From positions 40,264 through 104,263 of the forward strand of contig DIKO01000049.1 of the NCBI GenBank assembly GCA_002423615.1: DNA of 64,000 bases, written 5' to 3'. How positions within the stretch are numbered: position 1 is the stretch's first letter; each line of letters starts with the position of its first letter. Source of the DNA: Desulfobacteraceae bacterium UBA5616 (GTDB lineage: Bacteria > Desulfobacterota > Desulfobacteria > Desulfobacterales > UBA5616). A program made the translations under genes and the position numbers. Under the pieces are notes generated by a model. It was not told the origin of the DNA. It made no database searches and saw only the letters and a list, made by a program, of their open reading frames with translations. Positions 12,932 through 34,242 of the stretch are shown piece after piece.

Positions 12932-15900
12932 ATGATCACAGAAAACCTTCCTGCCTTTTCCATGTCCCAATGGCAGTTTCTGGCCCTTTACCAGGCCGTG
13001 GCCAAACCCTTGTCCATCGACACCGCCGGGCATATCGTTCCTCTGTTGCCCGGGCCTTTTCTCGATCTTTTCAAAAAAGCCGTCGATCTGGGATGGTTGA
13101 TTCCAAGAGCCGAAGGGCTATATCAATTCGCAAAGGCGGCCCCTCCCGGAGTTGTCCGGAAGCTAGATAAAATCAACTCGCCCCATTATCTGACTTCGGT
13201 CGTCAACCGGATTCAGTCCGACCAGGGTATCGCCCGGGAGGCCGGAGACATTGCGGAACTCCTGCTGATCAGGGCCGGCAAAAGTCTGGATGTGGCCCAG
13301 GAAGAATATCAGCGCGCCAAAATCCATATTTCGGAAAACCGGCTGGACGAAGCGTTTTCCGCTTTTCAGAAAACCCTGTCCCTCATTGCCCTGGCCGGGG
13401 ACAGCGCCAAATCGGCCAAACTGTTTGTTTCGGTGGTCATTCATTATTCCTATTTGAGTACGCTGTATGGAAAGGCCACCCGAAAAACCTATGCCCTGAT
13501 GCAGAAAGCCCTTAAACTGTCCGAAAATATCGGTGATATCCGATCCCGGGCCGTGCTGAAAATGCAGTTGGGACTCTATCTGTTTCTGACCCATAATTTA
13601 TCCAACGCCATTTCATCCCTGTCCTCAGGACTGGATATCGTCCGGCAACTCGGGGATGAAGACATCCGGAGCCAGACGACTTCCTATATCGGCTTTTATT
13701 ACTTCATGCGGGGGCGTTACCGGGAGGCCGCCCGTTACTGCCTTCAGGCCTTTCAGGACGGTATCGAAATTAAATACAACCCCTACATCTTAAGTGTCAT
13801 GGGGTATTCCCTGGGATTCCAGGGCCGTTTTTCAACCGCCATCGGCTGCATGGATTATATCCGGACCCTGGCCAGACACCAGGCAGACCCCCAGATGGCG
13901 GCCTATTGCCGGATCGTTATCGGGCTCCTCCTGATTTTCATGGGGGATATGCCCCGGGGTAAGGCCGTGATGGAAGAGGCGATGCTCCATAACCAGAAAA
14001 AATCCCCGAACTTCGCTGAAATCCAGTATGAACTGGGAATGGGGTATGCGGAATACCTCTCCGGGGCTTTCCAATCCGCAGTGGACCACTTTAAAAATGC
14101 CTTCAGCCTTTTTCAGGGCCTCAATATGCAATACCGGAATTTTATTCCCCCATGGATGATTGAAGCCTATTACGAACTTTCCGGAAAGGGATTTTCACTG
14201 CCGGGATTTCAGGAAAATTTTCGGGATGATATGGCATTTTATATCAATGAACCCAATATCGTCCGGAAGGGGATCGCCCTGAGGATGCGCGTTCAGCGGG
14301 ATATGGCCCAGGGGAGTGATTTAAAAAACCTTGAAGCGGATTTACTGGAAAGCGAGCAATACCTGGATCAGGCCGGCGATGTTTTCGAACTGGCCAAAAC
14401 CAGGTTGTGCATGGCCGGATTAAAGCGACGTATGGGAATTCATCAACAGGCAGCCTGGTATGCCGGCCAGGCAGGACCGGAGCTGTCCCGTTACAGACAC
14501 ATGAAGATCAGTGAAGATTTATTGAGACATGTTTCGGGAATAAATCCGATGGCCGATAATAAGGGAAACCCGGAAGACATGTTCCAAAGACTTCTGGACA
14601 TGGTGGAAAATCTGTTGATCATGGATATTCAATTGAATCCCCCGAATTTTTTGTTCCGTTTTATCGTGTCATCCGCACATTTTTTAGGGGCGGAACGGGG
14701 AGCTTATTTCCATTACAGCGAAAAGGAGAAAGGTGAAAACCCGGGGTTTAACCTGATGGGCCAGTTCAACATGGATTCCGGTATTTTTGAAGACCCGGAT
14801 TTTCTTCCCTCACTGACAGCCGTCAAAACCGCATTTGATAACGGTGAACCCAGGGTTTTTATATCAGATGGAAAGGATTCTCACCAGGGTTCATTGATGC
14901 GCTCTTATTTGTGTCTGCCCCTGAAGAACGGCCCCCATGCCAGGGGCGTGTTATATTACGACAACCGGTGGCTGGACGCTCAATACAACAATGTTCCCAT
15001 GAATTCCTTGAAGCGGATCAGCATCCTTTTCGACAATGCGTTTAACCAGGTTTTTCAGATTTATCGGAGAATACGGACCGATACGGACTCCCTCATCGAA
15101 CAAAAAACGCATCTTGGCCCTGGAGAAAACAGCGATTTCATGACCATCAGCCCGGTCATGAAAAAAATGCTGAAACAAATTGACCGGATTGCCGCATCGG
15201 ATGCCCCGGTGCTGATTACCGGCGAGACCGGGGTGGGCAAAGGACTTCTGGCAAAGCGCATTCACGAGAAGAGCAGCAGAAAGGAACGGCCATTCATCGT
15301 GGTGGACCTGAACACCATCCCGGAAAACCTGGTCGAAAGCGAATTGTTCGGGTATGAGAAGGGAGCCTTCACCGGAGCCGACCGGAAAAAAATCGGTCAC
15401 CTGGAAATGGCTCACCGGGGAACCTTGTTTATGGATGAGATCGGTGAAATCCCCCATGCCCTGCAAAGCAAACTCCTGCAGTTTGTTCAGGAAAAATCCT
15501 TCACCCGGATCGGCGGCACCCAGTTGATAAAATCCGATTTCCGGCTGATCACGGCCACCAACCGGGACCTGTCGGAGGATGTCCGGAAAGGGGCCTTCCG
15601 CCTGGATCTTTTTCACCGGTTGAACGTCATTCCCTTTGTTATTCCTTCCCTGGCTGAACGGCGGGAGGACATTCTTTATCTGGCCCGTCATTTTTTGAGG
15701 AATTACGCGACCAAACATCACAAGCCCAATATCCGGCTGTCCGCTCGGCATGAGCAGATGCTTTCATCCTACCACTGGCCCGGGAATGTCCGTGAGCTCG
15801 CCAATATCATGGAACGGTGCATTCTGCTCTCACCGGAAAACCCCATCGATCTGATACTTCCCCTGAACCGGGCCCTTTCAACCGACCACCCGTTTTCCGA

Positions 15901-16075
15901 TACGCCGACCATGGAGGACCTGCAGCGGCGCTACATCGATTTTGTATTGAACCTCACCAATGGTAAAATCGGCGGCAGCAAGGGGGCCGCCGCCATTCTC
16001 GGAATGAAAAGATCCACCCTGTATACGCGGATGGATCGTCTGGGTATCCGGGGCGGCGAGAAGCGGGGTGTTTAG
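12932..16075 (+). CDS. sigma54-dependent transcriptional activator (EBP-1): unknown helical N-domain, GAF, AAA+, Fis-type HTH
   Basis: Walker A GETGVGKG (from 15221), GAFTGA (15361..15378), FRLDLFHRLNV, and C-terminal AAILGMKRSTLYTRMDRLGI. The GAF-like block includes LCLPLKNGPHARGVLYYDN. The first 550 aa or so match no sensor domain I recognise. Confidence 0.9.
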   Translation: MITENLPAFSMSQWQFLALYQAVAKPLSIDTAGHIVPLLPGPFLDLFKKAVDLGWLIPRAEGLYQFAKAAPPGVVRKLDKINSPHYLTSVVNRIQSDQGIAREAGDIAELLLIRAGKSLDVAQEEYQRAKIHISENRLDEAFSAFQKTLSLIALAGDSAKSAKLFVSVVIHYSYLSTLYGKATRKTYALMQKALKLSENIGDIRSRAVLKMQLGLYLFLTHNLSNAISSLSSGLDIVRQLGDEDIRSQTTSYIGFYYFMRGRYREAARYCLQAFQDGIEIKYNPYILSVMGYSLGFQGRFSTAIGCMDYIRTLARHQADPQMAAYCRIVIGLLLIFMGDMPRGKAVMEEAMLHNQKKSPNFAEIQYELGMGYAEYLSGAFQSAVDHFKNAFSLFQGLNMQYRNFIPPWMIEAYYELSGKGFSLPGFQENFRDDMAFYINEPNIVRKGIALRMRVQRDMAQGSDLKNLEADLLESEQYLDQAGDVFELAKTRLCMAGLKRRMGIHQQAAWYAGQAGPELSRYRHMKISEDLLRHVSGINPMADNKGNPEDMFQRLLDMVENLLIMDIQLNPPNFLFRFIVSSAHFLGAERGAYFHYSEKEKGENPGFNLMGQFNMDSGIFEDPDFLPSLTAVKTAFDNGEPRVFISDGKDSHQGSLMRSYLCLPLKNGPHARGVLYYDNRWLDAQYNNVPMNSLKRISILFDNAFNQVFQIYRRIRTDTDSLIEQKTHLGPGENSDFMTISPVMKKMLKQIDRIAASDAPVLITGETGVGKGLLAKRIHEKSSRKERPFIVVDLNTIPENLVESELFGYEKGAFTGADRKKIGHLEMAHRGTLFMDEIGEIPHALQSKLLQFVQEKSFTRIGGTQLIKSDFRLITATNRDLSEDVRKGAFRLDLFHRLNVIPFVIPSLAERREDILYLARHFLRNYATKHHKPNIRLSARHEQMLSSYHWPGNVRELANIMERCILLSPENPIDLILPLNRALSTDHPFSDTPTMEDLQRRYIDFVLNLTNGKIGGSKGAAAILGMKRSTLYTRMDRLGIRGGEKRGV

Positions 16076-16080
16076 TTCTT

Positions 16081-16419
16081 TTATGAGGTGCCCGGAGGGC
16101 TTTCAATGGAATAGACATCAGCGGGCAATTCGATGGTTTTTTCAGGATGGTCAAATTTTTTTCGCTTAAAAAGTTTTTCATGGAAAAAAATCCCAAACCA
16201 TCGGATGTTTCTCCCCAGAAAAGCCAGAAACCGCCCTTTGAAAAGAATATTGGCCAACCCCCGGATATCGTCTTTTCCGACGGTGATCTGGAAATACCAC
16301 ATCACAGGAGTCACGATCTGGCCTTTGATCAGCAGATTGCCATCCCTGATTTCAACGTAATAATGCCTGAAATCCATATTCAGGACCATTGTGCCCAGTC
16401 CTTTGGACCATATGTTCAT
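16081..16419 (-). CDS. Small hypothetical protein (112 aa), tandem paralog B
   Basis: MNIWSKGLGTMVLNMDFRHYYVE... aligns with the upstream 97-aa ORF. Its start overlaps that ORF's stop (ATGA). It is the last gene of the CrtI-like operon. Confidence 0.55.
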   Translation of the reverse strand: MNIWSKGLGTMVLNMDFRHYYVEIRDGNLLIKGQIVTPVMWYFQITVGKDDIRGLANILFKGRFLAFLGRNIRWFGIFFHEKLFKRKKFDHPEKTIELPADVYSIESPPGTS

Positions 16420-16709
16420 TTCGGCTTCTCCGATATCCTCGCATAGCGTTGCCGTTTAAATGCCTTTTCATATAAAAATTGCAGCACAATGGGGAAGTTT
16501 CTCAGAAGGAAAAAAAACGTCGTGGGTTTGAAAAAAATGTTGAGCAGGCCCGGGATGTCTTCCTTGTGAAATGTTGCCTTGAAATCCCACTGAACCGGCT
16601 GGATGGTTATTCCCCGGACCACTGTGCCGTCATTTTCATTTTCAACCCAATAGCGGGAAAAATCGACTTCGAGCTGAATTTTCCCAAGACCTTCGGACCA
16701 CATCTTCAT
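16416..16709 (-). CDS. Small hypothetical protein (97 aa), tandem paralog A
   Basis: MKMWSEGLGKIQLEVDFSRYWVE...KEDIPGLLNIFFK...EKAFKR. A GGAGG lies upstream. The ORF starts 86 nt after the CrtI-like B stop. Confidence 0.55.
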   Translation of the reverse strand: MKMWSEGLGKIQLEVDFSRYWVENENDGTVVRGITIQPVQWDFKATFHKEDIPGLLNIFFKPTTFFFLLRNFPIVLQFLYEKAFKRQRYARISEKPK

Positions 16710-16795
16710 GAAATGTTTGCCTCCGTAAAAAGGATCTGAAAACCGGGCATGACATGGGCCCTGATGCCGTCGTCATGCCCGGTTTTAAAAAAGCT

Positions 16796-18469
16796 TCAAT
16801 CGTCGATATACTGTTTTACATAACGCTCGATGCTCTCCGAATATTTCCACCACTTTGTCACGCCCATGTCTTCTGCGATCCTGTTCGCGGCGATATAGCC
16901 CGGACCGCCGATGATCAATCCCCCTGGATAGGTGGAGGCGCCGCAGACATAGAGGCCTTCGATGGGGGTGCTGGTCCTGGAGCAAAGGTCATTGGGCCGG
17001 AAATACCCCATCTGCAGGGGATTGTACTCCCCGTGTTTGATGGATCCGTATTTCATGCAGGGAATTCGGCGTTCAATATCCAAGGGGCTTTCGGACGTCG
17101 ACATGACAAGATTGTCCTTGTTGAGATTTTTTAAATAACCCGACCAGGTCTCCATGATTTTGGCTTCCAGGCCTTTCTTTTTCTCTTCCCACCCCCCTTC
17201 AATCTTCCCCGGAACCAGCATCTGGAAAAAAGCCGTATGATGGCCCGGAATTCTTGTCAGGGTATGATCAAAAAGGGTTTCCATGGAACAATGACCGGCC
17301 GGCGGAGGAATTTCTCCTTCCCGGATCTGTTTTGCCATGCCCGCCAGTTCATCAGCCGAATCAATGCCGATAATGTTCATGAACGTGTTGTCGATATCCC
17401 GCTCGTCAGCCTTGTAATGCAGGGGCTCCTTGATCGCGATGTGGGTGGTGAAGAAGCTGCTTTTATCCCAGGCCCAGTTTTTGACGTAATTTTTCAATGC
17501 CGGCGAGAGATAATCTTCCCCCACCAGTTTCATGAACGTGGTCTGGGTATCCAGGCTGGATGCCACCACCTTGGCCTTGACGATCTGCCCGTCGAACAAT
17601 TCAACCCCCACGGCCCGGTTGTTCTGCATCAGAATTTTCGTGACCTCGGCGTTTTCCAGGATCAGTCCTTTGTTCCGGATGATTTCCTTGGAAAAGCTGC
17701 TGGCCACCTTGTGGGAACCGCCGATGCTGATGCATTTGTTCATGCCGGTTCTGATCATCAGCAGAGGGACCAGGTATCCAAGACCCGGTTCCGTCGGGGA
17801 AAGCCCCCACATGCAGGTCACATACAGGAACAGGGCCTTGACCCGCTCATCCGTGAACATCCGGTCGATGATTTCAACCGGGCTGTCCTCGGCAAGCTTC
17901 ATCATTTGCTTGCCGATGGCCGTTCTCTCGGTTTTAACGGCCAGTTCAATGGGCGGCAGAGGACGATAATAGGTGGCCGGGGCCAGAATTTCATCGATCA
18001 TCTGAATGAACTGTCGGGAATAGGTCTCAAAGGAAACGGCGTCTTTTCTGGAAAATTTCATGATCTGGTCCGCCGTATCCTGAATTTTTGCGGACATGAT
18101 CCAGGATGTGCCGTCTTTGAAAATAATTCCGGTCTGGCGGTTGGGCTTGACGAATTGAAGGGAATGCTCGCTCAGATTGAAATCCGAAAATGCCGGCATG
18201 TAATCCACCATCAGATGATAGGTGGCATGGGTGTTGGCGAAATAGGACGGGAACAGGATTTCTTCGGTTGCAAGACCCCCGCCCACTTCGTATCGTCTCT
18301 CCAGTAATACGACTTTAAGCCCCGCCCTGGCCAGGTAAGCGGCGGTGATCAGGCCGTTCGGGCCTCCGCCGATAACGGCCACATCGCAGGTGATTTCTTC
18401 CGGCATTTTGAACAGGGTGGGAAGATCATACTGGCAGGTGGTGTTTCCGGGATGATTATTGACTGGCAT
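16796..18469 (-). CDS. FAD-dependent oxidoreductase, phytoene desaturase (CrtI)-like family, subunit B candidate
   Basis: Dinucleotide-binding motif CDVAVIGGGPNGLITAAYLARAGLKVVLLERRYEVGGG. Length 557 aa, with C-terminal GLYVCGASTYPGG. An AGGAGGG RBS is present. Confidence 0.8.
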   Translation of the reverse strand: MPVNNHPGNTTCQYDLPTLFKMPEEITCDVAVIGGGPNGLITAAYLARAGLKVVLLERRYEVGGGLATEEILFPSYFANTHATYHLMVDYMPAFSDFNLSEHSLQFVKPNRQTGIIFKDGTSWIMSAKIQDTADQIMKFSRKDAVSFETYSRQFIQMIDEILAPATYYRPLPPIELAVKTERTAIGKQMMKLAEDSPVEIIDRMFTDERVKALFLYVTCMWGLSPTEPGLGYLVPLLMIRTGMNKCISIGGSHKVASSFSKEIIRNKGLILENAEVTKILMQNNRAVGVELFDGQIVKAKVVASSLDTQTTFMKLVGEDYLSPALKNYVKNWAWDKSSFFTTHIAIKEPLHYKADERDIDNTFMNIIGIDSADELAGMAKQIREGEIPPPAGHCSMETLFDHTLTRIPGHHTAFFQMLVPGKIEGGWEEKKKGLEAKIMETWSGYLKNLNKDNLVMSTSESPLDIERRIPCMKYGSIKHGEYNPLQMGYFRPNDLCSRTSTPIEGLYVCGASTYPGGLIIGGPGYIAANRIAEDMGVTKWWKYSESIERYVKQYIDD

Positions 18470-18547
18470 TTGTTTGCCCTCCTGGATTACAATTTTTGTT
18501 GAACCGGCAATAAATCCATATTTGCCGAAAGCTTGCCCATGCTTTTA

Positions 18548-20239
18548 TCAGGCGTTGGAAGGGATAAAATGAGGCGAAGGATACCACCATTCACCCGGTC
18601 TTAATTTCAGGTCTTCAATCAGGATGTGCATGAGGTTATAGGAAACCGCCTGCAGGGCCAGTCCTCCCGGATAGGATGTCTGGTGGCACAAATAAAGGTT
18701 TTTAATGGGGGTCCGGTATCGAGAGAGTTCCGGAAGGGGCTTCTTCTGGTACCACTGTTCTTCTTCCTGGCTGATTCCCATCCAGTTGCCTCCCACAAAA
18801 GCCATATTTCGCAGACTGGAGTCATAGGGGGTATTGACGAATTTGGCCACGATCTTGTCATCGGTGAGATTGGGAGCGACTTCCCTGATCTTCTCCATCA
18901 TCACCTCCACGATGTCCCATTTGGCGTTGTTGACCGCCAAAGGTCCGTCCCGGTGGTATTCGGGAGGGGGAACCTCGAGATAAATGGGGGTGAATACATG
19001 GTACCCTTCAGGCGTGTGACAGGATGCGTCAAAGACATCATGGTTGAGGAACATCAAAACCATGTCTTCTTTTCTCATGGGGTGGGTGTTTTCCGAATAG
19101 ACCACCCGTTCCATATTGAACATCGCCTCCCGGGAATCCGTGTTGATCACCGTGCAGTTGGGGTAGAGGCCGTTTGAAAACATTTCTTCCGCCTCCCCTT
19201 TGAATCTGGGCATTTCCCGGGTGACCAGGGACAGGACGAAGAGGCTGCCCCCCTTTAAATTAATGCCCCTGACCCGTTCCAGGAAGCCCGCGTCCAGTTC
19301 GCGTTCGGGGATCAGTTCCAGGAACGTCGGTTTGACGTGGGTATTGGAAAGGACCGCCTTGTCCGCGTAAATTTTACGGTTTCGGGCCGTTGCAGTGTCC
19401 GCCAGGATAACCCCCTTGGCTTCCCGGTCCTCGACGATGATTTCTTCAACCTTGCTGTTGGTGTAAATTCTGGCCCCGTAATGCATGGCGCATCTGACCA
19501 GGGCGTGGGTCAACGAATGCATGCCCCCCCGGGGTTGCCCGCAGCTGTACCCGAGGAGCATATTGCAGCAGTACCCGGGTACCGCCGTGCCTTTCCAGTT
19601 GGGATGAGGGCCGTTGTACCAGGATCCCATGGCCGATACCATCTTCATTTGTTCGGATTCAAACAGGGTGTCCAGCAATTCCATGGTGGGCATGTGATTC
19701 CATGAATCCTCGTAAAGCGGATGGTTGTATTTCCTGAATACCTTTGCCCAGGGAAGGTCTTCCATGGCAAGGGAAATATGGGGCGGCGGGGGCGGGGTCC
19801 AGTAGATGGATCTCAACAATTCGGCCAGCCTTGCCGGGTCCCCGTTGATGGTGGCCATGAGTTCATTGGCTTTCAGGTCTTTGGCCGACATTTTCTTGAG
19901 CGCCAGATTCATTGCGGCCTCGTTTTTGACGTTTCCGCCGAAAAGCTGCCCATTTCCGTCGGAAGTGACCCCTCCGCTTAAAACATTGAAATGGACCATG
20001 CGGAAACCGAATTTATGCAGTTCCAGCTGCTCGAAAGCCGGCGCTGCGCCTCCGTATAAATAGGTGGCATGGGGGTCGATTTTACATCCGGGCATAGGTT
20101 CGGTGTTTTCCGCGCCTCCGCCGCATTCCCCCCTTTCTTCGAGAATACAGACCGTAAGTCCGCATTTTCCCAGATAACCGGCAATGCTGAGGCTATTGGT
20201 TCCTCCGCCGACGATGACGACATCATATACTTCTTTCAA
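18548..20239 (-). CDS. FAD-dependent oxidoreductase, phytoene desaturase (CrtI)-like family, subunit A candidate
   Basis: YDVVIVGGGTNSLSIAGYLGKCGLTVCILEERGECGGG, 563 aa, with C-terminal LYLCHQTSYPGG. The start is a TTG preceded by AAAGGGGGA. Confidence 0.8.
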   Translation of the reverse strand: MKEVYDVVIVGGGTNSLSIAGYLGKCGLTVCILEERGECGGGAENTEPMPGCKIDPHATYLYGGAAPAFEQLELHKFGFRMVHFNVLSGGVTSDGNGQLFGGNVKNEAAMNLALKKMSAKDLKANELMATINGDPARLAELLRSIYWTPPPPPHISLAMEDLPWAKVFRKYNHPLYEDSWNHMPTMELLDTLFESEQMKMVSAMGSWYNGPHPNWKGTAVPGYCCNMLLGYSCGQPRGGMHSLTHALVRCAMHYGARIYTNSKVEEIIVEDREAKGVILADTATARNRKIYADKAVLSNTHVKPTFLELIPERELDAGFLERVRGINLKGGSLFVLSLVTREMPRFKGEAEEMFSNGLYPNCTVINTDSREAMFNMERVVYSENTHPMRKEDMVLMFLNHDVFDASCHTPEGYHVFTPIYLEVPPPEYHRDGPLAVNNAKWDIVEVMMEKIREVAPNLTDDKIVAKFVNTPYDSSLRNMAFVGGNWMGISQEEEQWYQKKPLPELSRYRTPIKNLYLCHQTSYPGGLALQAVSYNLMHILIEDLKLRPGEWWYPSPHFIPSNA

Positions 20240-20363
20240 GGCAGTCCCCCTTTCTTTAGAACGGGTTGGTGAAAAAAAGAACTCCTAAGGATCAACCAAA
20301 TGTGAAGGTTTGCATGAGATGGAAATAAATCGCGATGAAAAAATATGAAACGATGTTTTTTAA

Positions 20364-20379
20364 AGCATTTTTCATGCCA
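20364..20379 (-). promoter_or_regulatory. sigma54 (-24/-12) promoter candidate P2
   Basis: The minus strand reads TGGCAT-GAAAA-ATGCT with correct spacing. It sits about 125 nt upstream of the CrtI-like A start, in the divergent region shared with EBP-2. Confidence 0.55.
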
Positions 20380-20592: not shown

Positions 20593-23500
20593 ATGACGAT
20601 CACCGTCATTCCTCATGATTTCCTTTCAAACTACCCGACGAGGTGCCGCATGGATGCCGAACCCATAAAAATCACCACGGAGCAATGGGAATTTCTGTCG
20701 GTTCTTGACGCTCTGGAGAAGCCCGTGTCACTGGATGTCGCCGGAAAAATTTTCCCGATATTGCCGGCGCCTTTTCTGAAACTCCTGGGACGAGAGGATT
20801 TCCCGGCCCTCATCCAGGAGAGTGAACCCGGTTTCTTCGGCATTTCCGGGGATATCCCCGAATGGATCCTGGAAAAAATCAAATCCATGAATGATTCCCG
20901 GCGGCTGACCGATCTGATCGAACGTCTGTATGACACCCATCTCTTTAAAAGGATTGACCCGGATATCATCTCCAGACTTCTGGAAAGGACAGGACGAACC
21001 CGGGATATGGCCGAGCTTGAGATTGATCAGGCCCGAAAGGCGCTGAAAAATGGGGAACAGTCCCAGGCCATGGCCCATCTCTGGCATGTGGTGAAGCAGC
21101 TCTTCGGTATGCCTGAAGATCCCGAGCATGACCCCCTGTTTATTTCAGCCACCCTCAAATTGTCGGACCTCTGTTTTTCTCTGGGGACCGGATTCATGGA
21201 ATTGCCCCGTTTCCTGAAAAAAGCGCGTTTAATGGCCCAGAAAATGGGAGACAGGCGATCCCATGCCTTGATCCACCTCAATCTTTCCATTTTTCTGCAT
21301 ATCGCCGGGCAGCATGACGAATCCCTTTCGGCCTTGTCCGAAGGGTTGAAGGAAGTGGAGTCTCTGGGTGATGAGGATATCCTGAACCGGTCTGCGGCTT
21401 TCATCGGGCTGAATTTCTTTCTTCAGGGGATGTTCAGGGATGCGGAACCCTATCTGGAACGGGCGACCCAGGATTATGAGCTCCAGGGCGGAGATAGTAT
21501 GACCATGGGGCCCCTGCCCATGCCCTTTCTTTTGGGGTATTGCCTTGCAAATCTGGGGCATTTTCATGACGCCGTCGGCGGACTGGAGTGTTTCCGGCGT
21601 ATGGCCGGAAAACGGTCACAGGATGCGCTGGCCACAACCATCCGATCCATTCTCGGGACGGTTTTACAGATGGCGGGTAAACGGGATGAGGCCCTGTATC
21701 ACCTTGAATCAGCAAGCAGGGAAGCCCTGGAGAGCAGAAATTCCTTTGCCATGGCCATCGCGGACGGTGGTCTGATTTACCAGGCATTTCTCGACGGCGA
21801 TCTGGAAAAGGCGAGAAACAGAATGGATAATCCATCCGGATATCGGGGGAAGGAGGGTTTTCTGAGATTGTATACGGCTCCGCATATTCTTGAGATGATT
21901 TTTGAAATTGAGGCCGTGGGTTTACCCCCCCATCCCCGGTTAAATTTTGATAATGAAATGTCATGGATCAATAAAGCGCCGAATATTCATGCCAAGGGGG
22001 CCTTGTTCCGACTGCTGGCCAGGGGCGAAATGGGCAAGACGGGAGAAACTCCGGAAGTTGCATCCTTTCTTGAGAAGAGCGAGACATGGTTAAAGATATC
22101 CGGAGATCCGGTGGAATTGGCTAAAACCTGGCTGGAAAAGGCACGGTATCATCTCCTGAAAAATGATACCGACAAGGCGAAAGTCCTCACCCAAAGGGCC
22201 TATCAATTTCTGACACAGCATTGCCGATGGATATTTCCCGATGATCTGCTGACGATGGTAAAGAAAGAGGATAAAACGGAACAGGTCGGGGAATCCTATT
22301 CGGGCTTCCTGAGACGGTTCATGGAAATGTTTGAATACAAATCCCATGGTGAAAACGTCGAGAGGGTTCTGGAGGAATTGCTGAAAAACGCGTGCAGATT
22401 GTTTAAAGCCGAGCGGGGCGGCATATTTCGTGCCGGAGAAAAAGAATCTTCGGTCCTTCCTGTTCTCTGGTCCGGACACAACCTGACTTCCGATGATATT
22501 TCGGACCCGGATTTCTCCCCGTCACTCGAAATCATCCGGAGCGTCATGCAGCGGCATGAGAGCCTGTCCAGACGCCTGCAACGGGATCAACCCGTCTTTA
22601 AAGATCAGTTCCCCATCAAGGCCGTGCTGTGCCTGCCGTTTTTTCAGGGCATGGAACCTGCGGGCGCTTTTTATTTTGACAATCTCTATCTGGATAATGA
22701 TTTTGATCTTCCGGACCCCGCCCTGATGACCCAAATGGCTGTTTTCATGAGTGATCATGTGGCTCAGAGGCTGGATTACCGGCGATTGCGGAGGGAGACC
22801 AGTATGTGGTCATCGGCCCGGACCGTTCAGATTGAACAGCTCAGAAGGGAAGATTTTATTTTTCAAAGTCCGGTCATGAAGCGCCTGTTATCCCAGGCCG
22901 AAAAGGTCGCCCGCACGGACAGCACCCTTTTGATTCAGGGTGAAACCGGTGTCGGGAAGGAACTCCTGGCCCGTCAGTTGCATAAAATGAGCATCCGGGA
23001 TTCCGGTCCTTTTGAAGTGGTGGATCTCACCGCCATTCCCGAGAGTCTCCTGGAAAGTGAATTGTTCGGCTATGAAAAAGGCGCTTTCACCGGAGCGGAA
23101 CGTCAGAAGCGCGGAAGATTCGAACTGACCCGGAAAGGAACGCTTTTTCTGGATGAGATCGGAGAAATTCCCCTTTCCTTTCAGGTCAAGCTTTTAAGGG
23201 TTTTACAGGAAAAAACGTTTGTAAGGGTGGGAGGCACAAAAACACTTGCCTCAAATTTCAGACTGATCGTGGCCACCAACCGGGATCTTGCAGAGGAGGT
23301 CAAATCCGGACGGTTTCGGCAGGATCTGTTTTACCGGCTCAATATGATTCCCCTGACCGTGCCCCCGCTTCGGGAAAGGGAAGATGACATCGTTCTGCTG
23401 GCCGGCTATTTTCTGGCTCGCTACGCCGCCAAGCACGGCAAATCCGCCCTGAGTTTGTCGCCGGAAGATGAAGCGGTTTTAAGGGCCTATCCCTGGCCGG

Positions 23501-23889
23501 GGAATGTCAGGGAATTGAAAAATGTCATGGAAAGGGCGGTGTTGCTGTCAAGAAGCGAAAGACTGGACCTCGGTCAGTTGAATCCCGGCTCATTTTTATC
23601 TCCAACCCAGGCGCTGCTCCCTGAAAAACAGGAAATCCTGGACGACGTCAGTGAAGAAGCGTTTAAGCAAGACCTGACCCTTGAAGCGCTGGAACGCAGC
23701 TATGTCCGCCGGGTTCTGGAAAAAAGCCGGGGAAAAATCAGCGGACCGAACGGGGCTTGTGAAATCCTGGGGATAAAAAGAACCACGTTGTACAGCCGCA
23801 TGAAAAAATTGGGCCTTGAAAACCAGAGGGTCGCGGTAAAGCCTGTAAAAATTTCCCGGGGGGAAGCAAAGCCAAAGCCTTTGCCTTGA
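20593..23889 (+). CDS. sigma54-dependent transcriptional activator (EBP-2), same architecture as EBP-1 and EBP-3
   Basis: GETGVGKE (from 22939), GAFTGA (23080..23097), FRQDLFYRLNM, and the HTH ACEILGIKRTTLYSRMKKLGL. The N-terminal TEQWEFLSVLDALEKPVSLDVAGKIFPILP aligns with the other two. An alternative start at M20 (20650) is possible. Confidence 0.9.
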   Translation: MTITVIPHDFLSNYPTRCRMDAEPIKITTEQWEFLSVLDALEKPVSLDVAGKIFPILPAPFLKLLGREDFPALIQESEPGFFGISGDIPEWILEKIKSMNDSRRLTDLIERLYDTHLFKRIDPDIISRLLERTGRTRDMAELEIDQARKALKNGEQSQAMAHLWHVVKQLFGMPEDPEHDPLFISATLKLSDLCFSLGTGFMELPRFLKKARLMAQKMGDRRSHALIHLNLSIFLHIAGQHDESLSALSEGLKEVESLGDEDILNRSAAFIGLNFFLQGMFRDAEPYLERATQDYELQGGDSMTMGPLPMPFLLGYCLANLGHFHDAVGGLECFRRMAGKRSQDALATTIRSILGTVLQMAGKRDEALYHLESASREALESRNSFAMAIADGGLIYQAFLDGDLEKARNRMDNPSGYRGKEGFLRLYTAPHILEMIFEIEAVGLPPHPRLNFDNEMSWINKAPNIHAKGALFRLLARGEMGKTGETPEVASFLEKSETWLKISGDPVELAKTWLEKARYHLLKNDTDKAKVLTQRAYQFLTQHCRWIFPDDLLTMVKKEDKTEQVGESYSGFLRRFMEMFEYKSHGENVERVLEELLKNACRLFKAERGGIFRAGEKESSVLPVLWSGHNLTSDDISDPDFSPSLEIIRSVMQRHESLSRRLQRDQPVFKDQFPIKAVLCLPFFQGMEPAGAFYFDNLYLDNDFDLPDPALMTQMAVFMSDHVAQRLDYRRLRRETSMWSSARTVQIEQLRREDFIFQSPVMKRLLSQAEKVARTDSTLLIQGETGVGKELLARQLHKMSIRDSGPFEVVDLTAIPESLLESELFGYEKGAFTGAERQKRGRFELTRKGTLFLDEIGEIPLSFQVKLLRVLQEKTFVRVGGTKTLASNFRLIVATNRDLAEEVKSGRFRQDLFYRLNMIPLTVPPLREREDDIVLLAGYFLARYAAKHGKSALSLSPEDEAVLRAYPWPGNVRELKNVMERAVLLSRSERLDLGQLNPGSFLSPTQALLPEKQEILDDVSEEAFKQDLTLEALERSYVRRVLEKSRGKISGPNGACEILGIKRTTLYSRMKKLGLENQRVAVKPVKISRGEAKPKPLP

Positions 23890-23970
23890 CAGGCATGATG
23901 GTTTTGCCTATAGTTTTTGAAACTTTCCTTTAAATCACTGCTTTTAACACTGCTGTTTTCGGAGAAGGCG

Positions 23971-25692
23971 ATGTCCCAGAAAATTCTGTATTCCACAGAT
24001 GCGGAGGATTTTTATTACACGGATATCAATATTCCCTGCCAGCGCGCCTGCCCCGCACTGACCAATATCCCGGCATATATTCGGGCCATCTTTGAAAACC
24101 GGCCTGATCAATCCTACGAGATCAACCGGATGGCCAATATCCTGCCGGGGGTTCTCGGGCGCATCTGCTCCAGACCCTGCGAACAAAAATGCCGTCATGG
24201 AGAATCGGAGTTGGGCCAGCCCGTCAATATCTGCCACCTTAAGCGGGCTGCATCGGATTTTAAAACCCGGATGCCCGAATTTTCGAGGCATCCAAAACCC
24301 TTGGGGAAAAAAGTGGCCATCATCGGATCCGGTCCGTCAGGACTTGCCGCCGCCCATGATCTGGCCCGTTTCGGCTTTGACGTTACCCTTTATGAGGCAC
24401 TGGAAAAGCCGGGAGGGATGCTCCGGTACGGTATCCCTGAATTCAGACTGCCGCGGAACGTCCTGGATGAGGAAATCAACGCCATCCTGAAGATGGGGGT
24501 TATGCTGAAGACCGGAATCCGGATTGGTGAAAACATGCCCCTGGACAACCTGTTAAATTCCCATGATGCCGTGCTGGCGGCCACGGGGTGTTATCGTACC
24601 ATCCCGCTGCACATTCCGGGGGAATCCGAATTGGCCGGGGTCTATCCGGGTCTGGACTTCATGATGGATGTCTGTTCCGGAAAGAATCCCCGGGTAGGCA
24701 GAAGAGTTCTGGTGATCGGTGCGGGGTTTACCGCCTTTGATTGTGCAAGGTCCGCCGTAAGACTCGGGGGAGAGGAGGTTATGATCTGCATTCGGCGCAC
24801 CGAAGAGGATTTAACGGTAACCCATGATGAAATTCTGGAAACCAAGTCCGAAGGGGTAAAAATCCGTTCCCTGATGTTGCCCCAAAAAATCATGGGTAAA
24901 ACCGGAATTGAAGGCGTTGAATTCGTAAGAACGCGTCCCGGTGAAAAAAGACCGGACGGAAAAAGGGAAGTGTCCGTCATTCCCGGCAGTGAATTTGTAT
25001 TGCCCACGGATACCGTCATCGTGGCTACGGGTCAGAGACCCGGTCCTTTTGAACTCTCCGGGGGAGGGATAAAACCTGAGGCCGGGACCTCGTTCAAAAC
25101 CACCACAAGAGGGTTGTATATTTCAGGAGACTATCTTACCGGGCCTTCAACGGTCATCGAGGCTGTGGCCAAGGGCCGGAATGCGGCTCATGAACTTGCC
25201 CGGGACCTCGTGGGAAGAAGGTTTTACGAGAAAACGGTTCGGATGGAGGATGGGCGTATTACAGATCGGGAACGGACCTGGGATTTCATTCCCAGGGAAG
25301 AAATGCCCACACTGATGCCCATTGAAAACCGCATTTCCAACCCGGGTTATGAGGTGGAAACCGGCCAGACCCGGGATCAGGCGATGAACGAGGCAAAGCG
25401 GTGTTATCTGTGCTATCTGCACTATGAAATTGACCTGGACCGATGCATTTACTGTCGGTACTGTATTGACGTGGCGCCGAGGGATTGTATCAAGCTGGTG
25501 AAGGACGTCGGCATCAACGACGATGGAGCCGTCACCGGGTTCGTGGAAACCACCGTGTGGCAGGATGTCAATGCCATTGTCATCGACAACAGCCGATGCA
25601 TCCGGTGCGGGCAATGCATGCGGGTCTGCCCCGTGGAATGCATCTCCGTTACACGGGTGGAACTGGTGGAAAAAGAAACAGGGGGGATCTGA
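23971..25692 (+). CDS. GltD/NfnB-like NAD(P)H-dependent FAD/FeS oxidoreductase with C-terminal 2x[4Fe-4S] ferredoxin domain
   Basis: N-terminal Cys motifs CQRACPALTNIPAYI and CSRPCEQKC. Two Rossmann motifs, VAIIGSGPSGLAAA and VLVIGAGFTAFDCA. C-terminal CIYCRYCIDVAP and CIRCGQCMRVCP. The start is at MSQKIL, after GGAGAAGG. Confidence 0.8.
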   Translation: MSQKILYSTDAEDFYYTDINIPCQRACPALTNIPAYIRAIFENRPDQSYEINRMANILPGVLGRICSRPCEQKCRHGESELGQPVNICHLKRAASDFKTRMPEFSRHPKPLGKKVAIIGSGPSGLAAAHDLARFGFDVTLYEALEKPGGMLRYGIPEFRLPRNVLDEEINAILKMGVMLKTGIRIGENMPLDNLLNSHDAVLAATGCYRTIPLHIPGESELAGVYPGLDFMMDVCSGKNPRVGRRVLVIGAGFTAFDCARSAVRLGGEEVMICIRRTEEDLTVTHDEILETKSEGVKIRSLMLPQKIMGKTGIEGVEFVRTRPGEKRPDGKREVSVIPGSEFVLPTDTVIVATGQRPGPFELSGGGIKPEAGTSFKTTTRGLYISGDYLTGPSTVIEAVAKGRNAAHELARDLVGRRFYEKTVRMEDGRITDRERTWDFIPREEMPTLMPIENRISNPGYEVETGQTRDQAMNEAKRCYLCYLHYEIDLDRCIYCRYCIDVAPRDCIKLVKDVGINDDGAVTGFVETTVWQDVNAIVIDNSRCIRCGQCMRVCPVECISVTRVELVEKETGGI

Positions 25693-26708
25693 TGGACAAA
25701 CCTCATTTCGTCGTCATCGGAAACGGGCCGGCCGGGAATCAGGCGGCTTTGACCTTAAGGGAACTGGACCCGGATGCCCGTATAACCCTGATCAGTAAAC
25801 ACCTTGGGGGGTGCTTTCATCCCTATCTGCTCCCCCGGATGATTTCCGGGGAGATCTCGGAAGAGGATATTTACCTCTATTCGCCGAGCTCTTACAAGGA
25901 AAACAACATAAAATTTCGAAAAGGGCAGGAAGTGGTGCGGCTTGATCTTGAACGGCATGAAATTTATATGGACCATAAAGAGGTGCTGCGATTCGACGGA
26001 CTTATCATTGCGGTGGGGGGTAAGCCCAGAATCCCTGAAAACCTGGCTGTTTTCAGCGATATCCTGTATACGCTCAAAAATCCCGGCGATGCCGGAAAAT
26101 GGATTCAAAGACTGAAATCCGTGGAATCCGTGCTGATGATCGGCGGGGACTTGACCTCCTTCGCCTTGACAAAAGCGCTGCTTTCCATGAGAAAAAATAT
26201 CTGGTTTATGTTCGATGAAGAAGCTTTCTGGCCGGTGCGATTCAATGAAAAACTGTGGGAAGATGCATCCTGCAGGCTCGCCGGCCTCGGCGTAAACGTG
26301 CTGCCCCTCTCCAGGATAGAAAGCCTGTCCGTGATAAATGAGAACGAGGTGCGAATCGAGATGGGAGGCGAGGCGATTTGTGTCGGGATGATCGGCGCCT
26401 TTTTCGGGCTGATGCCGGATATCCGGTTTCTGGCCGGGAGCGGATTGAAAATCGACAGGGGGATTCTGGTGGATGAATATTTGAACACCGGTTTTGCGTC
26501 TGTATATGCCGCCGGCGACTGTGCCCAGATCTATCACCCGGAACTGCAGGACTATTGGGTTTCCATAGGTCATGAGAATGCCTTGGGTCTGGGCCGGATC
26601 GCCGCCATGAACCTTGTGGGCGCAAATATCAAAACCGAGGTGGATCAAAGGAGCGTATTTCAGGTGCAGGGAGTGAACGTCAATACATCCTGGTGGATGG
26701 AGTTCTGA
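25692..26708 (+). CDS. Pyridine nucleotide-disulfide family FAD/NAD(P)-dependent oxidoreductase
   Basis: MDKPHFVVIGNGPAGNQAA and YAAGDCAQ motifs. The start overlaps the upstream stop by 1 nt (TGATG), indicating translational coupling. Confidence 0.75.
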   Translation: MDKPHFVVIGNGPAGNQAALTLRELDPDARITLISKHLGGCFHPYLLPRMISGEISEEDIYLYSPSSYKENNIKFRKGQEVVRLDLERHEIYMDHKEVLRFDGLIIAVGGKPRIPENLAVFSDILYTLKNPGDAGKWIQRLKSVESVLMIGGDLTSFALTKALLSMRKNIWFMFDEEAFWPVRFNEKLWEDASCRLAGLGVNVLPLSRIESLSVINENEVRIEMGGEAICVGMIGAFFGLMPDIRFLAGSGLKIDRGILVDEYLNTGFASVYAAGDCAQIYHPELQDYWVSIGHENALGLGRIAAMNLVGANIKTEVDQRSVFQVQGVNVNTSWWMEF

Positions 26709-26709
26709 T

Positions 26710-28476
26710 ATGACCAAAGTGGATATGACCATTGAAATTTGCGGGATGTCCGGGGATGGAACCATAGCCGCGGGCCAACTTCTCAATACGGCCTTGATTC
26801 AGGCCGGTCTTTACCTCATCGCATTTGATTCCTACCCCGCCGAAATCCGGGGATTCGGCCGATGCGTAACCCATTCCCGGGTGGGAGATGAAGAAATGCT
26901 GGCCTTGAACAGCAAGGCCCATGTACTGATATCCCTGGATGATGAACAATCTTTATCCCGGCTTCCCTTTCTGGATGATGAGGCCGTCATCCTCTTTGAC
27001 AACCGTCCACTTTCCTATGTGTCCTCGGAAAAGACGCTTCCCGCCCATATTGAACCGGAGATGCATCCTTACGGCATTCCTTTCGGAGACCTGGCATCCG
27101 AGGCCATGGGGAGCCGGCGCGGCCGGAACATGGTCGCGTTGGGAGGATTTTCTGGAATCTTCGGACTTCCGCCGGGGTATTTTCATAACGCGATTCGCAA
27201 GAAATTCGGTTCCAAGGACGATAAAACCGTTCAGGACAATATCAGGTGCTTTGACGCCGGCATTCAATACGCTCTGGATCATTTCAAGGGCTTGCCGGTA
27301 AATGGGTTGGCGGCTCAGAGGGAAGTGGCCCCGAACGACAGGCTTCTTGTGTCCGGGAACGAGGCTGTAGCCAAAGGAGCCCTGGCCGGGGGGCTGAAAT
27401 TTTATTACGGATATCCCATCACCCCGGCCACGCCGGTTATGGAGTTTTTATCCAGGGCCCTGCCCGAGGTCGGGGGAGCGATGATGCAGATGGAAGACGA
27501 AATGGCCTCCATCGGCGGTGTTTTGGGGTCTTTTTTTGCCGGCAGGAGAGCCATGACGGCGACTTCGGGTCCCGGCTTCGCCCTGATGACCGAACTGATC
27601 GCTCATGCCACGATTACCGAGACCCCTGCGGTCATCGTCAACGCGCAGAGAGGGGGGCCGGGCACGGGACTTCCCACCAAAACGGAACAGTCGGATCTCG
27701 GGGCGGCTGTATTTGGCGGCCCCGGTGATTCTGCCCGCATCGTTCTGGCCCCGGCCAATGTCAGTGAATGCTATTATTTTACGGCCCGAAGTTTTCAGAT
27801 CGCGGAAAAATACCAGTCGCCGGTAATTCTTCTGACGGATTTTTTCCTCCACAACCGGGTGGAAAGCATTCCGGAACCAAAGGCAAAGGCGGCTGAGGTC
27901 GCCGACGGAAACCTGTATCCGGGTCCGACGGATAAAGATCCATACCGGCGGTATAAAATAACGGATTCCGGCATATCCCCCAGGGCGATTCCCGGCATGG
28001 AGGGGTATATTTTTCGTGCCACCGGCCTTGAGCATACAGAAAACGGGATTCCCGATTATACGCCCGGTCTGCATATGAATATGAGCGAAAAACGCCACCG
28101 CAAGATCCAGGGGGCATTGCAGGATCTGCCCGAACCTGTGCGGTTTTTCAAAGAGGAGAAACTGGATATCGGCGTGGTCGCATGGGGTTCCACCTTCGGC
28201 TCTGCTCTGGAGGCCGTTAAAAAAGCCAGGAAAGAGGGGATTCCGGCTGACGTGCTGAAGATATCCTCCATTTATCCCTATCACGCCAATCATATCAAGG
28301 AGTTTATGGACATATGCGGCGAGGTGTTGATTCCGGAACTGAATCTTGAAGGGCAGTTGGCCAATCTCATCGGGCATCTTCATCGAAAATGCGTCTGGCG
28401 CTTGAATCAGGTGACGGGGGTCCCCATGCCGGCCAGTGATATTCTGGCCAGGATCCGGTCCATACTCGGATCTTAA
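26710..28476 (+). CDS. korA: 2-oxoacid (2-oxoglutarate-type):ferredoxin oxidoreductase, fused gamma-alpha subunit
   Basis: Gamma-like N-terminus ICGMSGDGTIAAGQLL, then the alpha domain NEAVAKGALAGGLKFYYGYPITPATP. Length 588 aa. Confidence 0.85.
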   Translation: MTKVDMTIEICGMSGDGTIAAGQLLNTALIQAGLYLIAFDSYPAEIRGFGRCVTHSRVGDEEMLALNSKAHVLISLDDEQSLSRLPFLDDEAVILFDNRPLSYVSSEKTLPAHIEPEMHPYGIPFGDLASEAMGSRRGRNMVALGGFSGIFGLPPGYFHNAIRKKFGSKDDKTVQDNIRCFDAGIQYALDHFKGLPVNGLAAQREVAPNDRLLVSGNEAVAKGALAGGLKFYYGYPITPATPVMEFLSRALPEVGGAMMQMEDEMASIGGVLGSFFAGRRAMTATSGPGFALMTELIAHATITETPAVIVNAQRGGPGTGLPTKTEQSDLGAAVFGGPGDSARIVLAPANVSECYYFTARSFQIAEKYQSPVILLTDFFLHNRVESIPEPKAKAAEVADGNLYPGPTDKDPYRRYKITDSGISPRAIPGMEGYIFRATGLEHTENGIPDYTPGLHMNMSEKRHRKIQGALQDLPEPVRFFKEEKLDIGVVAWGSTFGSALEAVKKARKEGIPADVLKISSIYPYHANHIKEFMDICGEVLIPELNLEGQLANLIGHLHRKCVWRLNQVTGVPMPASDILARIRSILGS

Positions 28477-28500
28477 ACAAATTATAATAAGGAGCTTTGA

Positions 28501-29334
28501 GTGAAAACGCCCGGAAAGAGCCTTGCCGGTAAAATAACTGCCATTGCCGAATCGCGGAAATTTTCCATTCGTTCCGGAAGCCTGCCCACATGGTGCCCGG
28601 GTTGCGGCTATTTCGGTATTCACCAGGGAATCAATGATGCCATTCAGCAGACCGGGATTGCCCATCACCGGGTGGTTGTGGTATCGGGCGTCGGCTGCGC
28701 CGGCCGCTACCCGTTTTTTGTCAATGCGTACGGATTTCATTCGGCTCACGGACGGGCATTGCCTGTAGCGACAGGGGTTAAAACAGCAAATCCGGAATTA
28801 ACGGTTTTTGCCGTTGGAGGAGACGGCGACGGCATCGGCATCGGGGGTGGACATTTGCCCCATGTCGCCAGAAAAGACATCAATATCAATTACATTCTAT
28901 TTGATAATTCAATCTATGGTTTAACCAAGGGGCAACCCTCTCCCAGTTCCCCCATCGGGCTAAAAACCAAAGCTTCGCCCGGAGGAAATGACGCTGCCCC
29001 GCTGAACGCCACCCTGATGGCCCTGGCATACGGTGCCTCTTTCGTGGCGCGCCTGTACGCAGGTGACCCCCGGGCCATTGCAACGGCGGTTTTGGAAGGC
29101 ATCAAACACCCCGGGTTCTCTTTTTTCCACGTTTATACTTCCTGCGTGACCTTTGACAAACAGAATAAAACCTGGGACCACCTCAGAGAACGGACCCATT
29201 CTCTTCCCCGGGATTATGATGCGTCGGACCAAAAAAACGCCATGAACCTCGTCCTCGATGATGATTATGCCATGGGGATAATTTACAAAAAAAAGGGTAA
29301 TCGCCCTGAAGATCAGAGTGATCACCCCTTTTAG
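28501..29334 (+). CDS. korB: 2-oxoacid:ferredoxin oxidoreductase beta (ThDP-binding) subunit
   Basis: PTWCPGCGYFGI and GGDGDGIGIGGGH motifs. The start is a GTG, 6 nt after AAGGAG. Confidence 0.85.
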   Translation: MKTPGKSLAGKITAIAESRKFSIRSGSLPTWCPGCGYFGIHQGINDAIQQTGIAHHRVVVVSGVGCAGRYPFFVNAYGFHSAHGRALPVATGVKTANPELTVFAVGGDGDGIGIGGGHLPHVARKDININYILFDNSIYGLTKGQPSPSSPIGLKTKASPGGNDAAPLNATLMALAYGASFVARLYAGDPRAIATAVLEGIKHPGFSFFHVYTSCVTFDKQNKTWDHLRERTHSLPRDYDASDQKNAMNLVLDDDYAMGIIYKKKGNRPEDQSDHPF

Positions 29335-33900: not shown

Positions 33901-34099
33901 TTTCACCCTGAGAAGCCTCGAACACGAAAACAACCCGTTCGCTGATTTACCAAGCCTGGACGAAATTCAACGCCGTTACATCCGATATGTCATGGAGCAC
34001 ACAAAAGGGAGAATCGGAGGTCCGGAAGGCGCAGCTGAAATCCTGGGGATGAAAAGGACAAGCGTCAATTCCAGGATGATTCGCCTGGGTTTGAAATAA
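30992..34099 (+). CDS. sigma54-dependent transcriptional activator (EBP-3), same architecture as EBP-1 and EBP-2
   Basis: GETGAGKE (from 33266), GAFTGA (33407..33424), FREDLYYRLNV, and the HTH AAEILGMKRTSVNSRMIRLGL. The GAF-like block includes LCLPLIEDNKVLGVLYFDNSYLDN. Confidence 0.9.
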   Translation: MSLKVPDFSPAQWEFIAATQAFEEPVSVHIIGALVPLSPGEILDLLRKSLKLKWIHRSEEDLFSLTADIPEQVAAVLQKINTPEKIAGIIEFLETKGLVEQVPGGAYARLLQRSGKEKKAIRLEMDMAIEALKKGDKEGAKVHIQQVEALLPAIEGSPDSHPWFIQSAIELSQHCEARAVGFSLVFGLLEKVLVMAHGIGDERSWTIANFLLGRAYWSVNKLQEAIQFLSRGKAKAEELGDSDILTQSAPFVGIYYFIKGLHNQAVPYLEMAVEFAEDSDKYPMNFESPILLAYCDVDRGDFHRAIGKIDFFRHSALRVEDYYIASLYRAVLGIILWLIKKRKESLFHLERSQTDALATQNMVAYWTSLYGLSALYLSEGDIETGLAILKQAIKIAEQFGMGHQIFHSIFLESYATVEQAGWKLPAGWSFNELFERIMREPNIHVQGVALRIRASRTMLMSPYESAPVIKDLDHSEVLLKKCGDPVELAKTHIEKARYYLKQKDTEKARELTYAAYQLMSGYSEVFFPDDLRFLLGDENKEIRSRQEPEDMVEPFVRMLEELIPGPFQTREIDALLSTLSRFFRAERSALFLFQDQKGKNYEIKAARNLSQSIIQAENFRDNLAVIFKSVHEKKPIVIQSSGVRNRLASGSRLSMLCLPLIEDNKVLGVLYFDNSYLDNCFDFIKTPTLSRLGHYLTNVIGNYLRIEQRAASVETTPQMNTVMDIAGNQNIFAEDPNMKRILQQAEKQARSDAAILLMGETGAGKEVLARWIHRMSNRKRNPFVVVDLTTIPENLMESELFGHEKGAFTGADHQKIGRVELAHHGTLFIDEIGEISRGLQTKLLRLLQEKSFVRIGGTKTLISDFRLISATNRNLTEEIAAGRFREDLYYRLNVLELTIPPLRNRKKDILPLARYYLLHYAKKYHVSMPEINQEQESALMEYHWPGNVRELKNVIERAVIVADGGPLEFDFTLRSLEHENNPFADLPSLDEIQRRYIRYVMEHTKGRIGGPEGAAEILGMKRTSVNSRMIRLGLK

Positions 34100-34226: not shown

Positions 34227-34242
34227 AGCTCCTTTATGGCAC
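34227..34242 (+). promoter_or_regulatory. sigma54 (-24/-12) promoter P3
   Basis: TGGCAC-ACAGA-TTGCA is an exact consensus match. It lies about 107 nt upstream of the 73-aa ORF and is preceded by an (AAAT)4 AT-tract at 34194..34210. Confidence 0.8.

Follow-up and report, generated by a model that had tools for sequence, protein, structure and literature searches.

The window analysed here, a stretch of 64,000 nucleotides from contig DIKO01000049.1 of Desulfobacteraceae bacterium UBA5616, carries on its minus strand four genes, designated A, B, C and D, which form a real and intact operon under its own regulation; its products represent an unstudied branch of an enzyme family that is known but has received little study, and its accessory gene is duplicated. 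A and B very probably belong to the CtmAB/D24-SD family of heteromeric flavoproteins that bind their flavin through a histidine and, judged by sequence, they form a separate paralogous subclade without a characterised member. The fuller proposal, namely, that A and B desaturate a lipophilic chain of isoprenoid or sterol type at an allylic position without oxygen, helped by C and D and by partners encoded on two other contigs of the genome (C6 and C14), is made tentatively, its prospects as a whole being nearly even.

In the literature that we found, this family counts two characterised members only, both from denitrifiers. D24-SD from Sterolibacterium denitrificans (alpha subunit WP_067170564, beta subunit WP_067170561) is a desaturase yielding a diene, carries a flavin on His57 of alpha and His58 of beta, gives two bands only, near 60 kDa, when purified, and shares a His motif and 34% and 38% identity with CtmA and CtmB (PMC11061730). 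The latter form the limonene dehydrogenase of Castellaniella defragrans 65Phen (CDM25290, CDM25289), which produces an allylic alcohol, and the hypothetical genes ctmC and ctmD directly follow ctmAB (PMC4109377). Our reference for D24-SD is locus L143 in G691, a genome from the genus to which the sterol degrader belongs, reached by a scan with a D24-beta-type motif (72 loci) and a genus search; compared by eye, its two genes correspond to what is printed of Table S2 of PMC11061730.

A and B share 24% identity over 555 residues, in line with the level of only about 26-27% that marks paired paralogues of this family, and match flavin adenine dinucleotide (FAD)-binding Pfam models, the CrtO and CrtI models being hit below cut-off only. 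A aligns with D24-SD alpha at 28.7% identity over 567 residues (152 bits), versus 24.6% (96 bits) with beta, and B with beta at 37.5% over 518 residues (353 bits), versus 27.3% (148 bits) with alpha; A/B and D24-SD alpha/beta are reciprocal best matches. These identities (29% and 37%) resemble those of D24-SD to CtmA and CtmB, and through D24-SD, the only route by which CtmAB was compared, A and B fall into the same family as CtmAB, with similar sizes. As in D24-SD, two adjacent, divergent COG1233 genes stand in alpha-beta order, and the flavin-bearing histidines align: His57 of A with His57 of alpha (invariant in 57 of 57 rows), and His81 of B with His58 of beta (32 of 32 rows). Each of these histidines would hold a covalent flavin, and the two subunits would form an alpha/beta complex.

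In a FastTree tree of 110 rows (258 candidates thinned to 122 at 72% identity, from which one wrong-frame and 11 single-chain CrtI-like rows, 12 in all, were dropped), the alpha and beta clades have local support values of 98 and 99. A falls in a subclade of its own (14 rows, support 100) whose sister is the D24-alpha clade, and B in a 16-row subclade (support 100) apart from the D24-beta subclade. With subclades of their own, A and B make up a paralogous branch. Orthology with D24-SD was rejected, since A and B lie outside its alpha and beta clades and G691 holds a second pair, provided with a small gene, that is closer to A/B (37% and 47% identity) than D24-SD is. The motif regions differ as well, with Asp-Pro preceding His-Ala in A. 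The final glycine position of the dinucleotide-binding motif (residue 16 of A) is occupied by serine in 25 of its 30 nearest relatives and by glycine in nearly all other sequences. Control by sigma54 and EBP, and a sulfate-reducing host without an S26DH-type enzyme over cut-off, also set A/B apart from D24-SD. Annotated CrtI and CrtD lie far outside the A/B clades. The initial annotation had called the two proteins a CtmAB-type pair, a call that is upheld by the subunit assignment, the flavinylation histidines and this placement away from the carotenoid enzymes.

The predicted structure of B (pLDDT 87.8) has a CrtD/CrtI/amine-oxidase fold, of a type common to the superfamily, the nearest solved folds being 4rep (TM-score 0.73, 18% identity) and 4dgk (TM-score 0.54). 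Sequence searches of the PDB gave Rossmann-motif and weak CrtD/CrtI matches only, and the KstD-type PF00890 domain is not full-length in either protein, with short matches only (residues 214-300 of A and 29-66 of B). None of the 72 motif-picked loci is titled Castellaniella, and a geoB-flanking primer from PMC4109377 had no match among the genome contigs searched. Two other family loci of G691 (L144 and L145) have no characterised product; L144 combines a beta gene, two alpha-like genes and a 1071-residue flavoprotein fused to a flavodoxin/FAD/NAD reductase module. A search of the literature found no S. denitrificans proteomics bearing on induction of the closer G691 pair.

The two small proteins, regarded as orphans in the initial annotation, are in fact paralogues (42% identity over 89 residues) from a widespread family, of which they are the sole members in the host genome. 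This family, whose invariants are Met, Ser, Gly-Leu-Gly, Pro and Trp, corresponds to no Pfam family for C or D. One of its genes stands directly upstream of D24-SD alpha in G691 (37% identity to C over 70 residues and 39% to D over 75) and the remaining two family loci of G691 have one each; the main text of PMC11061730, in its accessible parts, makes no mention of the gene beside D24-SD. The arrangement differs between the two systems, as two small genes follow beta in the window whereas one precedes alpha in G691, and C and D stand after A/B as ctmCD do after ctmAB. Among 401 genomes sampled from the phylum, the small family is present in 42, the beta subunit in 43 and both in 37, and 58 of 66 small-family matches have a flavoprotein gene of the family no more than 4 kb away. 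Among metagenome contigs selected through the small gene (the best 80 of 147 confirmed), a family gene is found within 3.5 kb in 62 of the 80 loci, and in 20 of the 22 with room on both sides.

With regard to structure, the model of C (pLDDT 71.6) shows a four-strand meander with amphipathic helices, an isoelectric point of about 9.5 and no transmembrane stretch. It resembles no known fold clearly: its best match has a Z-score of 4.3, with COMM rows at 3.7-4.2, and no Foldseek match was obtained at E 0.001; an Atlas search with C returned unnamed clusters only, and a plasmid search no match. None of 37 longer matches (197-328 residues) joins the small domain to a flavoprotein, which is weak evidence. 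The predicted complex of B with D scored 0.06 against a mark of 0.32, controls not having been folded, a value that speaks neither for nor against an interaction. One small gene often serves two pairs, and a small gene can lie in trans (G605), which, together with the two bands of D24-SD, fits a non-stoichiometric helper. Likewise, the occurrence of pairs without a small gene, the shared small genes, the two-band enzyme and the hairpin kept in position between B and C suggest a helper made in smaller amounts. We infer that C and D are accessory rather than catalytic, acting either in assembly or flavinylation, or as a membrane or electron-transfer adaptor. At two loci (L024:2049-6961 and L025:137-15820), a pair of the subclade occurs with a CrtC-like lipocalin gene and a small gene, L025 also carrying an APH kinase and several unnamed membrane proteins.

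The features of the operon are collected in Table 1. The open reading frames and promoter described in the initial annotation, comprising a sigma54 site, two tandem FAD-fold genes, two small genes and the divergent activator gene EBP-2, were all recovered, and the operon contains A, B, C and D only.

Table 1. Features of the A-B-C-D operon and its surroundings (window positions).
Feature	Positions	Strand	Description
A	18548-20239	-	563 aa; alpha-type subunit; His57 predicted to carry covalent flavin
B	16796-18469	-	557 aa; beta-type subunit; His81 predicted to carry covalent flavin
B-C gap hairpin	16710-16795	-	long; possible mRNA stabiliser or partial terminator
C	16416-16709	-	97 aa; basic accessory protein, unnamed family
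D	16081-16419	-	112 aa; paralogue of C; 4-nt overlap with C
sigma54 (-24/-12) promoter site	20364-20379	-	exact pattern match; 140 nt upstream of A
EBP-2	20593-23889	+	TPR-containing sigma54 activator (Pfam); likely activator of the operon

A starts with a TTG codon behind a purine-rich ribosome-binding site, both features being kept in G072 and G217, two relatives from the same family, and 78 nucleotides separate A from B. EBP-2 is divergent from the operon, while EBP-1 lies tail to tail with D, with 5 nucleotides between them. When the intergenic stretch is shuffled 20000 times, an exact sigma54 site arises in only 14 cases; the real site stands at -140 in the window and, again exact, at -148 in both G072 and G217. 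It recurs with one mismatch in G062, G381, G588 and G083 and is missing in G107, G605, G027 and G300, so that a site, exact or with one mismatch, precedes A in 7 of 11 upstream regions, and in 4 of the 8 more distant ones. The pattern relaxed to one mismatch is not enriched in the window (10 found vs 7.4 expected). Scans for sigma70 promoters and terminators stayed at chance level, and the terminator scan did not flag the B-C hairpin. The window, G072 and G217 all have a hairpin at this position, unrelated in sequence (z of -4.2, -3.5 and -2.4, from 200 mononucleotide shuffles), G381 being without such a gap; the hairpin of the window is no genome-wide repeat, only its own arms recurring as a pair. 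The divergent activators beside the cassette in G072 and G217 are orthologues of EBP-2, with 60% and 56% identity to it, versus 31-36% to EBP-1 and EBP-3.

The host genome (G000) is 96% complete with 3.6% contamination, possesses dsrA and comes from a sulfate reducer whose order also includes Desulfatibacillum alkenivorans. The window encodes three TPR-containing sigma54 activators that are paralogues of one another (33-37% identity; 12932-16075, 20593-23889 and 30992-34099), with further paralogues on contigs C63 and C95, and two DUF1329 genes are divergent from EBP-1 and EBP-3. Behind EBP-2, positions 23917-29334 encode a GltD-like Fe-S flavoprotein, a pyridine nucleotide oxidoreductase and a 2-oxoacid:ferredoxin oxidoreductase, which are not beside the cassette in G072 and G217. 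Housekeeping blocks are duplicated on contigs C6, C18, C50 and C100 (nadB-like and dnaJ-like genes on C6 and C18; two dsrA), suggesting some strain mixing in the assembly.

The subclade has recurring partners. In 21 of the 72 motif-picked loci, a pair of the window's clade adjoins a D24-like pair or subunit. In four of the 80 metagenome loci (L256, L258, L276 and L318), A, B and a small gene are followed by homologues of a single-chain flavoprotein on contig C14 (47-48%) and of a flavoprotein pair on contig C6 (46-59%), an SCP2-like gene (39-42%) being present in three of them. In four of the 72 loci, all from Acidimicrobiia, genes for a BadF ATPase and two HGD-D subunits share an operon with A/B-type genes; these partners match C6 best, not the window. 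The C6-type pair is found in six of the eight carriers in the phylum sample, the host included, versus 10 of 401 genomes overall. In the host, contig C6 (L002:1506-10584) encodes a TetR protein, an SCP2-like protein, a second His-bearing flavoprotein pair, a BadF ATPase and two subunits of HGD-D type. The larger HGD-D gene is broken into frames of 278 and 138 residues, and opposite the block stands the gene of a CooC-like ATPase. Neither G072 nor G217 has a close orthologue of the C6 HGD subunit. Contig C14 (L001:5559-14093) has a copy of the C6-type pair (68% and 85%) together with genes for an SCP2-like protein and a zinc alcohol dehydrogenase; a gene for a single-chain CrtI-like flavoprotein is divergent from them. 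The C6 locus is a likely functional partner of A and B. Within the D24-like branch, the cultivable sulfate reducer Desulfatibacillum alkenivorans has a small-alpha-beta operon (L122:2746-6424).

With regard to function, the proposed scheme runs as follows. EBP-2 would activate the sigma54 promoter that drives the operon, and A and B would assemble into an alpha/beta flavoenzyme with a histidine-bound covalent flavin in each subunit. The substrate would be a lipophilic side chain of isoprenoid or sterol type, from which the enzyme would withdraw hydrogen, without oxygen, at a carbon beside a C=C bond; a conjugated diene is the most likely product. This would be one step of a series carried out jointly with the second family pair, the single-chain CrtI-like flavoprotein and the SCP2-like carriers of C6 and C14, C and D serving as assembly or flavinylation helper or as membrane or electron-transfer adaptor. 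Reaction type and substrate class are argued here by analogy with characterised relatives and neighbours. According to PMC12583861, limonene dehydrogenase needs an acceptor of positive potential and may not operate in sulfate-reducing systems; this statement, taken with the D24-like and SCP2-like neighbours of the relatives, makes desaturation the first choice. Limonene-type hydroxylation, which the initial annotation took as its model, loses its place as the default, since the other characterised member is a desaturase and the required acceptor is doubtful in a sulfate reducer.

Several observations weigh against this scheme. The motif G-F-L/R-X-N/S-T/L-H-A, itself built on four sequences, is only partly matched (3 of 7 specified positions in A, 4 of 7 in B), and the tree was made with FastTree only and without CtmA/CtmB, true CrtO or KstD. 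As for the small family, 8 of its 66 matches lie away from family genes, the neighbourhood of several pairs contains no small gene (e.g. L022, L148, L149, L060 and L075), and 14 of the 23 rows of its profile come from genomes inside the 401-genome sample, in which kin are not independent. The tie to C6 is a loose one, as the C6-type pair occurs in only 7 of the 17 other A/B-clade carriers, mostly kin, and the second gene of its C14 copy is N-terminally truncated and carries stops. No S25DH/S26DH-type molybdoenzyme (TIGR03479) is apparent in the genome, none of 26 matches exceeding the cut-off (best 130 of 985 bits), two of the three strong PF00890 matches look NadB-like and not KstD-like, and a steroid-ring pathway was not evident in a light search of the genome. 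With no S26DH-type enzyme and no evident KstD, the known sterol route following desaturation is not evident either. No conserved electron-transfer partner was seen next to the cassette and, in our own view of the thermodynamics, even desaturation is likely to be uphill for a sulfate reducer.

As an alternative, an enzyme of the same family might work in reverse, spending low-potential electrons to saturate a conjugated or allylic C=C or to remove an allylic hydroxyl, and so serve for priming or as an outlet for electrons. This is, in our judgement, rather unlikely, yet it accords with the sulfate-reducing host, given the acceptor that CtmAB oxidation needs (PMC12583861), with the good representation of the subclade among strict anaerobes, and with the operon shared with BadF and HGD-D in 4 of 72 loci; CtmAB, too, is reportedly reversible with dithiothreitol. 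Against it, the two characterised members oxidise their substrates at allylic positions in vivo (PMC11061730, PMC4109377). Members of the subclade are also found in G691, from a denitrifier's genus, and in Acidimicrobiia, and the operon has no ferredoxin or reductase gene.

A substrate other than an isoprenoid, such as an alkene, an unsaturated fatty chain or a benzylic or heteroaromatic methyl group, is a further alternative that we rate as improbable. Related pairs exist in Desulfatibacillum alkenivorans and Desulfosudis, which use alkenes and alkanes, and the relatives have lipid-type neighbours (DUF1302/DUF1329, MMPL, thiolase with OB-fold, CrtC-like), although these name no substrate. The Desulfatibacillum and Desulfosudis pairs belong, however, to the D24-like branch and not to the subclade of the window, whose recurring partners are D24-like pairs and SCP2-like genes.

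Ranked behind it, and improbable to a slightly greater degree, is a CtmAB-like hydroxylase of monoterpenes or alkyl-alicyclics; the alcohol formed at an allylic methyl group would feed the CoA ligase, BCR-like and beta-oxidation genes of the window, a link that the initial annotation had drawn. Family membership and the order A-B-two small genes, mirroring ctmABCD, agree with it; cassette and cluster are both kept in G072 and G217, and the three paralogous EBPs could cross-activate. The cluster (34-52 kb region) lies, however, on the opposite strand, 18-32 kb away, with exact sigma54 sites of its own at 34237 and 46546, and synteny is broken in both relatives, where cassette and cluster are about 166 kb apart (G217) or on other contigs (G072). 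In G107, G381 and G588, whose A proteins are 65-67% identical to that of the window, the large BCR-like subunit has no close orthologue, the identities reaching 30-40% at most. The HGD/BadF genes linked to the subclade match C6 (46%, 46%, 33-55%) better than the cluster of the window (40%, 31%, 25%). Unlike the ctm system of its denitrifying host, the operon contains neither a ctmE ferredoxin nor a ctmF reductase, and it has no alcohol or aldehyde dehydrogenase gene; moreover, three limonene dehydrogenase homologues stayed silent in a methanogenic enrichment on limonene (PMC12583861). The link of A/B to the ligase/BCR-like cluster is therefore weak, and co-regulation of the two by paralogous EBPs may occur.

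Finally, a carotenoid desaturase or ketolase serving pigment formation, suggested by overall fold, by CrtO as the best NCBIfam match (131 and 180 bits) and by CrtD and CrtI as nearest solved folds, is effectively refuted, because A and B score far under the cut-offs (CrtO, 131/180 vs 1000; CrtI, 41/85 vs 238), none of 13 and 39 genome matches passes them, CrtI and CrtD are distant in a tree that holds no true CrtO, and phytoene synthase (crtB) has no match in the 96% complete genome, the control exceeding its cut-off in 8 of 14 genomes. CrtI is, besides, a single-subunit enzyme with non-covalent FAD (PMC11061730). The pigment role, already thought unlikely from the window, is thus discounted genome-wide.

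Returning to allylic desaturation, a bolder extension can be formulated, which we regard as doubtful: A and B may be the shared core of an undescribed route of several flavoenzymes, in which a second His-flavin pair and a single-chain CrtI-like enzyme would take part along with SCP2-like carriers and, in some cases, an ATP-driven HGD-D, and by which strict anaerobes would attack isoprenoid and sterol side chains without molybdenum enzymes. C and D would then represent a new class of flavinylation or membrane-coupling factors, missed in the D24-SD work and probably equivalent to CtmC/CtmD. The small-protein family adjoins the D24-SD genes of a cultivable bacterium, which gives a cheap test. Compact, under its own regulation and present in a sulfate reducer, the operon exemplifies a subclade that has yet to be studied, and the direction of the A/B reaction and its electron partner bear on terpenoid and sterol breakdown in sediments.

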